Part shown: positions 2,983 through 6,677 of the stretch, in pieces
Numbering within the stretch: the stretch's first letter is position 1
Layout of the letters: every line of letters starts with the position of its first letter
Origin: a virus
Lineage: Duplodnaviria; Heunggongvirae; Uroviricota; Caudoviricetes
Length of the DNA stretch: 6,677 nucleotides
Strand: one strand, 5' to 3'
Virus record (IMG/VR): IMGVR_UViG_2534681835_000040
Notes under the pieces: model-generated
Told to the model about the DNA's origin: nothing
What the model saw: the letters and a program-made list of their open reading frames with translations, nothing else
The model's database searches: none
Program-made: the position numbers and the translations under genes

Positions 2983-3008
2983 GGGTTCAACTCCCGCCAG
3001 CTCCACCA
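2983..3008 (+). other. ssrA: 3'-terminal 26 nt of tmRNA (ssrA), i.e. T-loop, 3' acceptor strand and CCA, without the gene body: attachment-site core
   Basis: GGGTTCAACTCCCGCCAGCTCCACCA matches, from memory, the 3' end of E. coli ssrA (...GGACGCGGGTTCAACTCCCGCCAGCTCCACCA). The bases just upstream (..GGGTGTTT) do not match ssrA, so this is a partial copy, as expected at a prophage/island junction. It lies exactly between two integrase genes. Confidence 0.7.
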
Positions 3009-3044
3009 CTTTTTAGTTGTTTGAAGTTCAATGAAGTCTACTAA

Positions 3045-3076: not shown

Positions 3077-3173
3077 ACGTCTATTGTCGTCCAGTGAGAA
3101 TTGCTGAGAACTACGAGTTATGGCACCCTGAATGGGACCCACTAAGAAGGGTCCAAAAACCGAGGGTCCCAAA

Positions 3174-4403
3174 ATGGCAAAAATCGCTAAGAAGCTCACT
3201 GACACTGAAATCAAAAGCACCAAGCCAGCCGATAAAGAAATCAACTTGTTTGACGGTGATGGTCTGATTCTACGAATCGCTCCTTTGGCGAAAGGAGGCA
3301 AGAAAAATTGGTATTTCAGGTATGCAGTACCAGTGAGCAAGAAAAGAACCAAAATGAGCCTTGGGACATATCCTCACCTTACCCTTGCAAGAGCCAGAGC
3401 CTTACGTGATGAATATCTCTCCTTTCTGGCAAATGGTGTTGATCCCCAAATCCATAACAACGATAAGGCGAAGGCATTAAAGAGTGCTACTGAGCACACT
3501 CTCCAAGCCGTAGCGCGGAAATGGTTAGATGAGAAGGTAAAGACATCAGGTATCTCACAAGACCATGCAGCAGACATCTGGCGCAGCTTAGAGAGAAATG
3601 TCTTTCCCGGTCTGGGTAATGTCCCTATCAATGAGATCCGACCTAAGCTCTTAAAACAACACCTTGATCCTATTGAGCAACGAGGCGTATTGGAAACTCT
3701 ACGCCGTATCATTTCACGTCTGAATGAAATCTTCCGGTGGGCAGCTACTGAAGAACTTATTGAGTTCAACCCGGCTGACAACCTTGGTCAAAGATTCAGT
3801 AAACCAAAAAAGCAAAATATGCCTGCCCTTCCCCCAAGCGAATTGCCAAGGTTTATGGAATCTTTGACGAATGCGTCAATCCGGTTGGAAACACGTATGC
3901 TAATTGAATGGCAATTGTTGACATGGGTTCGTCCGGGTGAAGCCGTTCGCGCAAGGTGGTCTGATATTGATACAACCAACAGCATTTGGAACATTCCTGC
4001 TGATTTCATGAAAATGAAAAAGCTTCACAAAGTTCCTTTGAGTAAAGAAGCTTTGCGCATCCTTGAATTAATGAAATCAATAAGTGGGCATAGAGAATGG
4101 GTTTTCCCCAGCATAAAAGCGCCTCTTAATCATATGCATGAACAAACAGCCAACGCAGCTATCATCCGAATGGGGTTCGGAGGCGAGCTTGTAGCTCACG
4201 GTATGCGTTCTATTGCACGAACAGCGGCAGAGGAGTCTGGTAAATTCAGAGCTGAAGTTCTTGAGGCAGCGCTTGCCCACTCGAAAAAAGATGAAATTAT
4301 CGCAGCATACAATCGTGCAGAATATCTGATAGAGCGACAGAGTTTGATGCAATGGTGGAGTGATTACGTTCAAGCTCAAAGATCAAATGCTCTGGTAGCC
4401 TAA
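3174..4403 (+). CDS. int: P4-type tyrosine integrase (CP4-57 IntA-like)
   Basis: From the ATG at 3174 (GAGGG 7 nt upstream) the protein begins MAKIAKKLTDTEIKSTKP...LFDGDGLILRI...WYFRY, matching the N-terminus of P4/CP4-57-type integrases; the ATG at 3132 is an alternative start. Catalytic signature: RPGEAVRARWSDID (Arg), KMKKLHKVPLS (Lys), AHGMRSIART (His..Arg), LAHSKKDEIIAAYNRAEY (His, Tyr). Sits directly downstream of the ssrA 3' fragment, as intA does at ssrA in E. coli K-12. Confidence 0.9.
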   Translation: MAKIAKKLTDTEIKSTKPADKEINLFDGDGLILRIAPLAKGGKKNWYFRYAVPVSKKRTKMSLGTYPHLTLARARALRDEYLSFLANGVDPQIHNNDKAKALKSATEHTLQAVARKWLDEKVKTSGISQDHAADIWRSLERNVFPGLGNVPINEIRPKLLKQHLDPIEQRGVLETLRRIISRLNEIFRWAATEELIEFNPADNLGQRFSKPKKQNMPALPPSELPRFMESLTNASIRLETRMLIEWQLLTWVRPGEAVRARWSDIDTTNSIWNIPADFMKMKKLHKVPLSKEALRILELMKSISGHREWVFPSIKAPLNHMHEQTANAAIIRMGFGGELVAHGMRSIARTAAEESGKFRAEVLEAALAHSKKDEIIAAYNRAEYLIERQSLMQWWSDYVQAQRSNALVA

Positions 4404-4441: not shown

Positions 4442-4630
4442 ATGGAAACCCTATTCAAAGTTTTTGAAAAATTTAGTTCCAGACCACTTTTTTTTATTTT
4501 TTTCGGACTCTCACTTTGTGAATTTTTTCAGAAACAATCTGTTCTGATGAATCCATCAGCAGATAACATCGCGAAATTATTCGCAGCCATGATATTAGTT
4601 GTTTTTTTACTTGGGGATTTGAATGGCTAA
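4442..4630 (+). CDS. Hypothetical small protein (62 aa) with two hydrophobic segments; doubtful
   Basis: ATG at 4442 with GAAGG about 8 nt upstream. Translation has PLFFIFFGLSLCEFF and AKLFAAMILVVFLLG hydrophobic stretches. It lies in a very AT-rich spacer where ORFs arise easily by chance. Confidence 0.25.
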   Translation: METLFKVFEKFSSRPLFFIFFGLSLCEFFQKQSVLMNPSADNIAKLFAAMILVVFLLGDLNG

Positions 4631-4873
4631 TCTTCAAGTTCAATGTAAACCTTGAACCTCATGATCAAGGCGATATTGGACCAACAATTGGAACGGCTAC
4701 TTTAGCTGTATACTTAGTTTATGCCTTTCACTTTCTCAGTGAAAATCCTGAAGCATTAAATTTAAAGTTATTAACTAACTCTGGCTTTATATACAGCACA
4801 ACTCTATTATTATTCTCATTAGAATGCATGAAGCTTAGAAGACTTAAACAAAAATAAACAACATCATTGTGAT

Positions 4874-4915
4874 GATAAATATAAAATAGGCATGGCGAAA
4901 AAAAATCACCACGCC
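4874..4915 (-). terminator. Putative rho-independent terminator for the large - strand ORF
   Basis: On the - strand, GGCGUGGUGA pairs with CGCCAUGCC (about 9 bp with two G-U wobbles, 4889..4915) around a U-rich loop, followed by the U-rich tract UAUUUUAUAUUUAUC (4874..4888). It lies 14 nt after the stop at 4929..4931. Confidence 0.4.
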
Positions 4916-4928
4916 TAAAATATAATAA

Positions 4929-6677
4929 TTATGGTAGCATCATTGATACATAATCCACACCAATCCTTGAGCTATACTGAGACGCTATAGCCTGATATCT
5001 TTCTGCATAACCAGTTCTCAGTTGAGATTTAAGTTTGAGTCGGACAGGAACATTTTGCACGTTGCCATCCATATTACTTAAAAACACGGCAGAAATAATA
5101 TTTTTTTCTTCGCCATCAACTGTTGTTCCATGATTCAACACCACCATATAATCAACAACAGGAAGCGTTTTATCCCCTTCGAAAATAGAGAGATATTTTC
5201 TTTGATTTTTATGCATTACATATATATATTTCGAATGTTCAGCAAATGGCAATGCTTTACTCTGACTGGCGTTAAAAAGCTCCAGAACTTTAATGAGCCT
5301 GTGCGGACTTAATCTTACATGGTGAGGGTCGTTACCCTGAGTAGGAACCAAATCACATGCCGCAGATACACATAAATACCATTTGTTCGACTCTGTATCA
5401 AAGAAAATAGTGCCAGTAGAAATATGACCATCTTCAAAATTCTTTGAAGACAAATTCATATTTAAAGCATGATACATTTCGTGATAAGTATCATTATTTG
5501 ATGGCAGATCCATTTTTGAAGAGCAATATTGGAGCAATGCAGCAACTCCGCTGTTAGCGTATTCATTTGAATAGCTATCAAAAACACTTTTGATAAATTC
5601 ATCCAGCGTATTATTATTTTTAAGTCTTTGATAAAGCTCTTCTGATAAATTACCAAATACAAAGTCAATATTTCTACATCTAATATCAGGCGAGTCTGAT
5701 TTTAATATCTCATTTAACCACGCAGCTTGACCGTAATGATCGTTAGCCAAATGATTTACAAAAGATAAAGCCTCAGCTTCGATTGCATTCTGAATTTCAG
5801 ATTTTATTAACTGATAATAAGATGGTTTCCATTCAATGAGAGAATCATTGAGAGTTTGCCAAATCCTATCTCCATCGTTTTCATGATCATCTTGAACCTT
5901 ATGAAATAGGGAGACAAAGATATTACCACATTGAATCCATTTTACTCCGCTTTCATCACCCCGAATGACATTGCCAGATGTGTTGCTAGAAATAATTGCA
6001 TTTCTAGACACAGCATATTCTGCAATCATTTTTGCAATGAAGTTTTTATCCTTTTGATCCTCCAACACAGCATCATCATGTATTAATCTTTTAATTCTTC
6101 TACAAGGCTTACTGTCTTTAATATAGGCTATTGTTTCATCTCTTGTGAGAGCTTTATTACCATTATCATTTAAGTTCGGTAATACAACGTCTTCCCAATA
6201 ACTTTGGACATCTTCATTATCGTAGTCAATGATCAAGCTGTTGATATCCAGAGCACCTTTGAGAGTCGATGATATCTGCATCCAAACCGTTTCTAAATTC
6301 TCTCTAGTATATATTACAATCATATTTAAATGATCGGAGTCTTTCAAATCTTGTAATAGTTTAAGTGTTTTATCAGGTGCATTATTATCAAGATGATAAT
6401 CTACAATAATAAGATCTGATTTTCTAATCCGATCCACATCGAAATTAACAGAACCATTGTCAACATCACAAATCATATTTTTAGATTGAAAAAAGCTCTC
6501 AAGAGTAGCGGCTCGTTTAGATGAGTCAATTTTGTTGTAGTCTAAATCAACTTCGTTATTCAACGCCCTGATTGATTCAGAATACGTCAGAAAATCGTCA
6601 TCAATCATGACAACGGAACGAATTGCATTTTCGCAGAAAGTTTTCTGGACAAGAGAATTATAATTTGCCACTGTCAT
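4929..6677 (-). CDS. Large hypothetical protein (582 aa in window; ATG is at the window edge) with an N-terminal CheY-like receiver-like region and an unassignable C-terminal region of about 440 aa; candidate cargo/defence gene
   Basis: Uninterrupted 1749-nt ORF, stop TAA (reverse complement of 4929..4931). Visibly AT-rich codon usage unlike the prophage genes. N-terminal motifs in receiver-like order: SVVMIDDDF (acidic pair), DLIIVDYHLDNNAPDKTLKLLQDLK (Asp at the end of a hydrophobic strand), NMIVIYTRE (Thr). No P-loop, GGDEF or other motifs I can recognise downstream. Confidence 0.85.
   Translation of the reverse strand: MTVANYNSLVQKTFCENAIRSVVMIDDDFLTYSESIRALNNEVDLDYNKIDSSKRAATLESFFQSKNMICDVDNGSVNFDVDRIRKSDLIIVDYHLDNNAPDKTLKLLQDLKDSDHLNMIVIYTRENLETVWMQISSTLKGALDINSLIIDYDNEDVQSYWEDVVLPNLNDNGNKALTRDETIAYIKDSKPCRRIKRLIHDDAVLEDQKDKNFIAKMIAEYAVSRNAIISSNTSGNVIRGDESGVKWIQCGNIFVSLFHKVQDDHENDGDRIWQTLNDSLIEWKPSYYQLIKSEIQNAIEAEALSFVNHLANDHYGQAAWLNEILKSDSPDIRCRNIDFVFGNLSEELYQRLKNNNTLDEFIKSVFDSYSNEYANSGVAALLQYCSSKMDLPSNNDTYHEMYHALNMNLSSKNFEDGHISTGTIFFDTESNKWYLCVSAACDLVPTQGNDPHHVRLSPHRLIKVLELFNASQSKALPFAEHSKYIYVMHKNQRKYLSIFEGDKTLPVVDYMVVLNHGTTVDGEEKNIISAVFLSNMDGNVQNVPVRLKLKSQLRTGYAERYQAIASQYSSRIGVDYVSMMLP

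Follow-up and report, generated by a model that had tools for sequence, protein, structure and literature searches.

Here we analyze a 582-aa response-regulator-like protein encoded on the minus strand at one end of a 6,677-nucleotide stretch of viral DNA (the window) from the IMG/VR record IMGVR_UViG_2534681835_000040. The protein is the response-regulator component of a published two-component-like cassette, HEF_HK / Response_reg_2, whose regulator family PF19192 (Response_reg_2) and partner kinase family PF19191 (HEF_HK) were defined by Bellieny-Rabelo, Pretorius & Moleleki in 2021 (PMC8011034). We consider it probable that this cassette is a restriction-modification (R-M)-like unit with a phosphorylation-gated effector, which has decayed and is probably inert in the E. 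coli lineage represented here. The original prediction concerned a CheY-like receiver motif pattern at the N-terminus of an orphan protein. The novelty of that observation is nil, since Pfam, RefSeq annotation and the 2021 paper already cover the family; as written it has little at stake, with the receiver catalogued and the E. coli copy a remnant. The present analysis goes beyond PMC8011034 in extending the receiver to residue 283, including a helical insertion and the conserved Lys K260, in describing an obligately fused C-terminal output module of ~300 residues (the C-module), and in delimiting a minimal cassette without a separate nuclease. The features of the regulator gene are as follows.

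4929..6677, minus strand: regulator gene, 582-aa response-regulator-like protein (WP_000214990.1, RefSeq 'response regulator receiver domain')
5829..6623, minus strand: receiver (REC) domain, residues 19-283
6597..6602, minus strand: acidic pair D26-D27 after beta-1, predicted to bind metal (conservation in 115 relatives)
6399..6401, minus strand: D93, predicted phospho-acceptor Asp at the end of beta-3 (100% conserved; aligned with the acceptor Asp of solved regulators)
6306..6308, minus strand: T124, conserved Thr at the end of beta-4 (100% conserved; model)
5967..6257, minus strand: helical insertion between alpha-4 and beta-5, residues 141-237 (model, relatives)
5898..5900, minus strand: K260, conserved Lys at the end of beta-5, NIFVSLFHK (100% conserved; strand in the model)
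5448..5828, minus strand: all-helical region, residues 284-410 (motifs PSYYQ..SEIQN, GQAAWL and (M)YHALN; N406 invariant)
4932..5447, minus strand: beta-rich C-terminal module, residues 411-582, without a Pfam match
4887..4917, minus strand: terminator-like hairpin (12-bp stem followed by a T-run), 12 nt past the regulator stop codon

The ATG of the regulator gene is the final codon of the window, and the hairpin at its other end likely marks the end of the kinase-regulator operon. The GC content of the gene is 34%, compared with ~50% for the left part of the window. A protein identical to WP_000214990.1 is encoded in 586 of 5,426 complete E. coli genomes.

The sole Pfam match of the protein is to PF19192 (residues 19-175, 109.1 bits against a cut-off of 27, E=3.6e-31). 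The three predicted motifs lie in the 582-aa open reading frame (ORF) where they had been placed, with VVMIDDD at residues 22-28 (nt 6594-6614), IIVDYHLDNNAPDKTLKLLQDL at residues 90-111 (nt 6345-6410) and MIVIYTRE at residues 119-126 (nt 6300-6323), and the distance of about 66 residues between the first two is exact when counted from D27 to D93. This pattern is far beyond chance. A (beta-alpha)5 flavodoxin-like fold, superposable on solved receivers, is predicted by the full-length AlphaFold model (pLDDT 83.8, pTM 0.78), with beta-1 at residues 21-25, beta-3 at 89-93, beta-4 at 118-124, beta-5 at 253-259 and alpha-5 at 268-283. Each of the three motifs is located at the C-terminus of beta-1, beta-3 or beta-4, and the long spacing between beta-1 and beta-3 is explained by an extended alpha-1 region. 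Profile and predicted structure agree in recovering the receiver fold that had been proposed for the N-terminus.

The conserved Lys, originally described as not obvious, is present as K260 at the end of beta-5, behind the helical insertion, which differs among relatives in both sequence and length. Because K260 and beta-5 sit beyond residues 141-237, the receiver runs to about residue 283, past the Pfam match and also past the lower boundary of 6200 first given to the domain, which was too short. Conservation was scored in an alignment of 115 full-length relatives taken from 50%-identity clusters (median identity to the E. coli protein, 25%), in which D93, T124 and K260 are 100% conserved, D26 is 98% conserved and position 27 is D or E in 97%. 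The acidic stretch of the first motif reduces to the conserved pair D26 and D27, with D28 varying (Q/E/D/K/R). From the strand-end positions in the model we infer a pocket geometry in which D26, D27, D93, T124 and K260 would lie together. Residues 19-283 are a genuine divergent CheY-type receiver with a complete phospho-acceptor set and not a pseudo-receiver, because these five residues are 97-100% conserved. The earlier suggestion of a divergent or pseudo-receiver is correct in its first half.

Like the canonical CheY-like receivers (PF00072; e.g. CheY, PhoP and KdpE), the regulator has a (beta-alpha)5 fold with five functional residues placed where beta-1, beta-3, beta-4 and beta-5 end. It differs from them in the distance from the acidic pair to the acceptor Asp (66 residues instead of 44), in the ~100-residue insertion between alpha-4 and beta-5, in the absence of a Pro following the Lys, and in failing to match PF00072, the profile originally proposed as a check, at E-values up to 10. 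The family profile produced no alignment when compared directly with CheY of E. coli, and phmmer, run with the protein as query, retrieved no PDB sequence. With the full-length family profile, the best match among PDB sequences (E ~0.9) is a response regulator, and a receiver family profile from which the helical insertion had been excised weakly matches the solved regulators 3kht (E=0.03), Rcp1 (0.6) and PmrA (1), placing D93 on the acceptor Asp, and T124 on the beta-4 Thr in Rcp1. Other collections yielded no match (NCBIfam, scanned with the regulator protein), no convincing match (PADLOC, with an unrelated transmembrane candidate as the best at E=0.0028 and 15.7 bits), or only families of unknown function that are themselves built from the same locus in prophage records (PHROGs).

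The failure of PF00072, the empty comparison with CheY and the marginal E-values of 0.03 to 1 for the solved regulators could be accounted for by a pseudo-receiver that is not phosphorylated, or by another flavodoxin-like fold that mimics the CheY motif pattern. We regard this as extremely improbable: pseudo-receivers typically lose the residues of active receivers, whereas all five are retained across the family, and a kinase with its phospho-His motif preserved always accompanies the gene.

This pairing also means that the protein is not an orphan. The search for a nearby histidine kinase that accompanied the original prediction succeeds immediately outside the window, where E. coli genomes containing the window sequence encode a HEF_HK and HATPase_c kinase (annotated 'ATP-binding protein') whose gene ends 1 nt upstream of the regulator ATG. 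The E. coli kinase is a remnant of 572 aa, comprising the HEF_HK phospho-His helix (…EIISHELEEM…, H-box ISHELEEM) and HATPase_c, with H, N and G boxes retained. Its homologues in Salmonella, Klebsiella and Serratia are 99% identical and 988 aa long, with an extra N-terminal HATPase_c_3. The full kinase (~990 aa, soluble) consists of a MORC-like GHKL ATPase, a coiled region, the phospho-His helix and the kinase ATPase domain.

In the published survey of the family (PMC8011034), the conserved Asp, acidic pair, Thr and Lys of the receiver were described, the two genes were found to be linked in 91.6% over 644 regions, and C5 methylases, Vsr and R-M genes were enriched nearby. The kinases carry an N-terminal HATPase_c_3 (paraMORC-like) in 83% of cases and 34 of 222 naturally lack the N-terminal ATPase, while the regulator has no other known domain; a regulatory role over R-M systems was proposed (PMC8011034). 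The pair analyzed here corresponds to this description in scoring at about fourfold the Pfam threshold, in its Asp, Asp-Asp, Thr and Lys set, in the adjacent soluble kinase with HATPase_c_3, HEF_HK and HATPase_c, and in the association with C5 methylases and Vsr. It departs from it in that the E. coli cassette is truncated, without methylase and without the kinase N-terminus.

The intact cassette is found in Salmonella, where a C5 cytosine methylase (PF00145, E=9e-59), the kinase and the regulator follow one another in this order, with genes overlapping or abutting (the methylase gene overlaps the kinase start). In the Salmonella-type element the regulator is followed by a small membrane-protein gene and a P4-type integrase, and the whole lies within a mobilizable island with a relaxase. 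The same trio surrounds regulators of only 25-45% identity in a metagenomic contig, a marine gammaproteobacterium and Acinetobacter. The Acinetobacter kinase-regulator pair is cargo of a Tn7-like transposon, with TnsC/TnsD/TnsE upstream, and the convergent methylase there is preceded by a 71-aa HTH_3 protein, a layout known from controller-protein-regulated R-M systems.

A wider survey covered 77 species-level loci, fetched by family motifs. In all 66 with enough sequence, the gene immediately upstream, on the same strand, encodes the kinase, which has a GHKL N-terminus in 65 of the 66. Of the two components of a Type II R-M system, a cognate methylase and a restriction endonuclease, the methylase is represented by a C5 enzyme in 55 of 57 loci (40 upstream, 12 downstream and convergent, 3 downstream and co-directional), but neither the window nor any matching E. 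coli copy has it. Vsr, which usually accompanies C5 methylases, is the only other recurrent neighbor (31 loci). No separate nuclease gene recurs beside the cassette in the 77 loci, and Pfam-type domain scans recognized no endonuclease domain anywhere in the cassette. Other apparent clusters of recurrent neighbors were rejected as antisense ORFs inside kinase or methylase genes of GC-rich genomes. Searches of a plasmid collection gave two distant matches, and those of a phage collection two prophage records that simply take in this locus of the chromosome.

Pfam gave no match to the C-module, and structural comparison none that convinces. Modeled separately, residues 284-582 (pLDDT 84.5) form a helical bundle (284-410) and then a beta-rich domain with a C-terminal helix. 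Foldseek found no match in the PDB at E <= 0.001 (TM-scores ~0.1), and Pfam scans of 21 C-modules individually yielded no family, only scattered single matches; helix-turn-helix and winged-helix families matched neither these 21 C-modules (E up to 10) nor the full protein. A C-module profile searched against 1.84 billion representatives retrieved 646 cluster representatives, of which the best 150 are mostly 560-680 aa long with the module starting at about residue 280 (the shorter ones resemble fragments). Eight of ten relatives scanned carry PF19192 and no other Pfam family, and the two others are short (459 and 462 aa) and gave no match. The C-module was not found on other N-terminal domains in these ten, and the best 150 of the 646 share the overall layout. 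Because its relatives share this layout and eight of the ten carry PF19192, receiver and C-module behave as an obligate fusion. The core of the original reading holds, namely a receiver joined to a large uncharacterized output module and hence suggestive of phosphorylation gating.

Within the C-module, P285, N406, G422, C441 and R571 are invariant in the 115 relatives, and C436, A479, R560, G573 and D575 are more than 90% conserved. The motifs of the beta-rich part are TGT (G422), WYLCVSAACDLVP (C436 and the invariant C441), QLRxxY and RIGVD (with the invariant R571). The invariance of N406, C441 and R571 suggests an enzyme or a tight binding site, and the output module is probably catalytic or ligand-binding. 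The beta-rich part weakly resembles the CcdB/MazF/Kid toxin fold (SH3-like barrel), with weak scores and 5-12% identity. The known catalytic residues of these toxins cannot be mapped on the C-module and Foldseek finds nothing, so that a CcdB/MazF-like fold is a possible lead suggested by the model and not an assignment.

In the mechanism that we propose, the methylase would mark self DNA, and a trigger, probably DNA that is unmodified or invading, would be sensed by the MORC-like half of the kinase. Autophosphorylated on the H-box His, the kinase would then hand the phosphate to D93, and phosphorylation of D93 would release the activity of the C-terminal module, the effector. In E. coli, the loss of the methylase and of kinase residues 1 to ~375 would leave the regulator idle. 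E. coli lineages that live without the methylase and with an intact regulator fit an effector that is off unless the full kinase activates it. A more specific proposal, which we put forward tentatively, is that the C-module is a new kind of immune effector and forms the 'restriction' half of a three-gene R-M-like system, in which a MORC-like ATPase fused to a His kinase senses DNA that is unmethylated or invading and fires it through a His-to-Asp phosphorelay and not through direct protein contact or transcription.

Several known defense systems may serve as precedents, by analogy, for phosphate-gated immune effectors. In Detocs (10.1101/2023.01.24.525353), an infection-sensing kinase phosphorylates a receiver fused to a cell-killing effector, not to a DNA-binding domain; the acceptor Asp mutation D58A abolishes defense, and a His mutant loses it. 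The logic is alike, but Detocs uses a TPR-type sensor kinase (DtcA), a buffer receiver (DtcB) and effectors (DtcC) that are mostly PNP (ATP nucleosidase), none of which occurs here. Detocs lacks a methylase, and the present cassette lacks a third receiver gene and a PNP domain. Shedu type 1F (PMC10441436) joins a receiver to an immune effector, with a histidine kinase encoded next to it, but the effector there is a DUF4263 PD-(D/E)xK nuclease, and no such domain was detected in the regulator. MADS (methylation-associated defense system) was considered and rejected as a relative, its histidine kinase being mentioned only as an island boundary gene.

The third precedent, Ambrosia (10.1101/2025.09.30.679545), is a phage-validated system of five genes, encoding an XRE regulator, an N6 methylase, the HATPase kinase AbrB, the receiver AbrC and an HNH nuclease, and its acceptor-Asp mutant D60A loses defense. 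It shares with the cassette a methylase, a kinase with HATPase_c_3 and HATPase_c, and a receiver protein, and BLASTP of AbrB (first 400 aa) against the cassette kinase aligns the N-terminal ATPase (32% identity over 120 aa, E=6e-11) and the RDxxRVxPYG region (E=4e-6). The differences are that the methylase of the cassette is a C5 enzyme, that neither HNH nor XRE genes recur there, and that AbrC is only 209 aa long, with no match to PF19192 and without this C-module; a profile comparison of AbrC with the regulator gave no alignment. The DefenseFinder 'RM_Type_II REase' profile matches AbrB (supplement Table S1 of 10.1101/2025.09.30.679545), and some annotation pipelines may for this reason already class MORC-like ATPase-kinases as restriction enzymes.

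The decay of the E. coli copy is apparent from comparison of the intact Salmonella operon with all complete E. coli genomes. This gave 573 matches, none covering 80% of the operon, and all 12 matches listed begin at query nt 2295, at about kinase codon 376; neither the methylase nor the N-terminal MORC-like ATPase of the kinase is present in any of the 573 genomes. In a direct comparison with Salmonella, homology ends ~130 nt upstream of the annotated internal kinase start, and the annotated 572-aa kinase remnant begins at an internal Met. Of four E. coli loci inspected, two have an IS3 element adjoining the breakpoint. In O111:H8 strain 8E, whose genome is the closest to the window, the kinase remnant contains an internal stop, and in strain C7 the remnant is further deleted. 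The regulator gene is split by an IS3-family element in 8 genomes among the matches listed (including O103 and O121 strains), and a 453-aa regulator fragment appears in ~1,600 deposited sequences, compared with ~2,000 for the full-length protein. The GenBank record AJ304858 (Stx1 prophage CP-1639) already labels the locus a 'remnant integrative element' with a 'histidin kinase-like protein'. Because the methylase and kinase residues 1 to ~375 are deleted, the regulator gene of E. coli most likely can no longer be activated and persists as an inert leftover.

The substitutions relative to the Salmonella copy are few. The regulator has 9 nt differences (7 synonymous, 2 non-synonymous) and the kinase remnant also 9, causing 6 amino-acid changes; these small counts hint at relaxed constraint on the kinase piece and chiefly indicate recent transfer, for which reason the intactness of the regulator says little about selection. 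The remnant is also carried by the laboratory and industrial strains E. coli W, KO11FL and LY180 and by a record labeled DH5alpha (NC_017664, NC_017635, NC_022364 and NZ_CP026085), the last being odd for a K-12 derivative. A 5.6-kb contig of a 'Bacteroidales' metagenome-assembled genome (DAIPZW010000118.1) matches the full-length E. coli regulator gene at 100% identity, which is probably a binning error or contamination.

The gated effector has to be weighed against a conventional transcriptional response regulator, in which the C-terminal region, once D93 is phosphorylated, would bind DNA and turn the adjacent methylase or other R-M genes on or off. Most response regulators act in this way, and the small HTH gene beside the methylase in the Acinetobacter cassettes recalls controller-protein R-M systems. 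The literature leans in the same direction: control of R-M systems was proposed for the family itself (PMC8011034), and AbrC of Ambrosia was proposed to be a transcription activator, reporter expression rising on infection (10.1101/2025.09.30.679545). Yet no HTH or winged-helix family matches the 21 C-modules or the full protein, AbrC has no detectable homology to the regulator, and residues such as N406, C441 and R571, invariant at a median identity of 25%, resemble an active site more than a DNA-reading surface. The conserved cassette moreover contains no nuclease to regulate, only the methylase and sometimes Vsr. We rank transcriptional control below the effector, and consider it unlikely, because no DNA-binding fold is detectable and nothing obvious but the methylase is there to be regulated. 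Some considerations do weigh against the gated-effector reading: phosphotransfer, defense and effector activity are all inferred for the Response_reg_2 family; the loop holding C441 (CVSAACDLVP) is the single low-confidence stretch in both models; the family proposal and the Ambrosia model both favor transcriptional control over a direct effector; and, as to decay, the 7 synonymous and 2 non-synonymous differences of the regulator do not look like free decay, nine changes being too few to decide.

The last point would be expected if the gene still functions in E. coli, as a sensor-less or rewired module in which the 572-aa kinase remnant or a cross-talking kinase phosphorylates D93. The remnant ORF does retain HEF_HK, HATPase_c and the H, N and G boxes, some kinases of the family lack the N-terminal ATPase by nature (the 34 of 222 in PMC8011034), and the regulator ORF is intact at at least 99% identity in most of the 586 carrier genomes. 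Nevertheless, we find continued function quite improbable. One deletion breakpoint inside the kinase gene is common to all listed E. coli copies, the annotated kinase start is an internal Met without the native promoter, and some strains have kinase remnants with internal stops or more deletions. The remnant has also accumulated six amino-acid changes among nine nucleotide differences, an IS3-family element cuts the regulator gene in the eight genomes mentioned above, and the near-identity to the Salmonella, Klebsiella and Serratia copies points to recent transfer.

The interest of the gated-effector cassette lies in the family behind the E. coli regulator, a widespread and tightly conserved combination of methylase, MORC-like kinase and receiver-effector (646 cluster representatives by the C-module profile), which is a good candidate for a new phosphorelay-controlled, methylation-linked defense system. 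If the effector reading is true, bacterial MORC-type ATPases, DNA methylation and two-component phosphorelay would be joined in one defense mechanism, and a new effector fold would be added. The cassette is easy to clone, because Salmonella, Klebsiella and Serratia carry it intact at 99% identity to the remnant.

The remainder of the window consists of the rest of the small island and the end of a prophage. One further feature belongs to the island.

3132..4403, plus strand: P4-type tyrosine integrase (409 aa in RefSeq), belonging to the small cassette-bearing island integrated at ssrA

Between the integrase and the regulator, a 138-aa membrane-protein gene (4442-4858, plus strand) is frameshifted in the window, where a T-run at ~4601 has 7 residues, compared with 8 in strains 8E and AMSHJX01, leaving a 62-aa ORF; the frameshift could be a real mutation or a sequencing error. 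Closely upstream of the island integrase, positions 2983-3009 hold a 27-nt copy of the 3' end of ssrA (tmRNA), ...GGGTTCAACTCCCGCCAGCTCCACCA, and no full tmRNA gene is present in the window. This copy appears to be the attachment-site repeat that separates the left-hand prophage from the ssrA island to its right. Positions 1-2848 are the end of a lambdoid prophage, which in strain 8E is Stx1-converting, with stxA1/stxB1 ~5 kb further left. This part contains the C-terminus of an IS3-family (IS1203/IS629-like) transposase (10-300), genes for DUF551 and DUF4222 proteins, an excisionase (1506-1721) and a further integrase (1676-2848). Two integrases thus stand back to back at ssrA.

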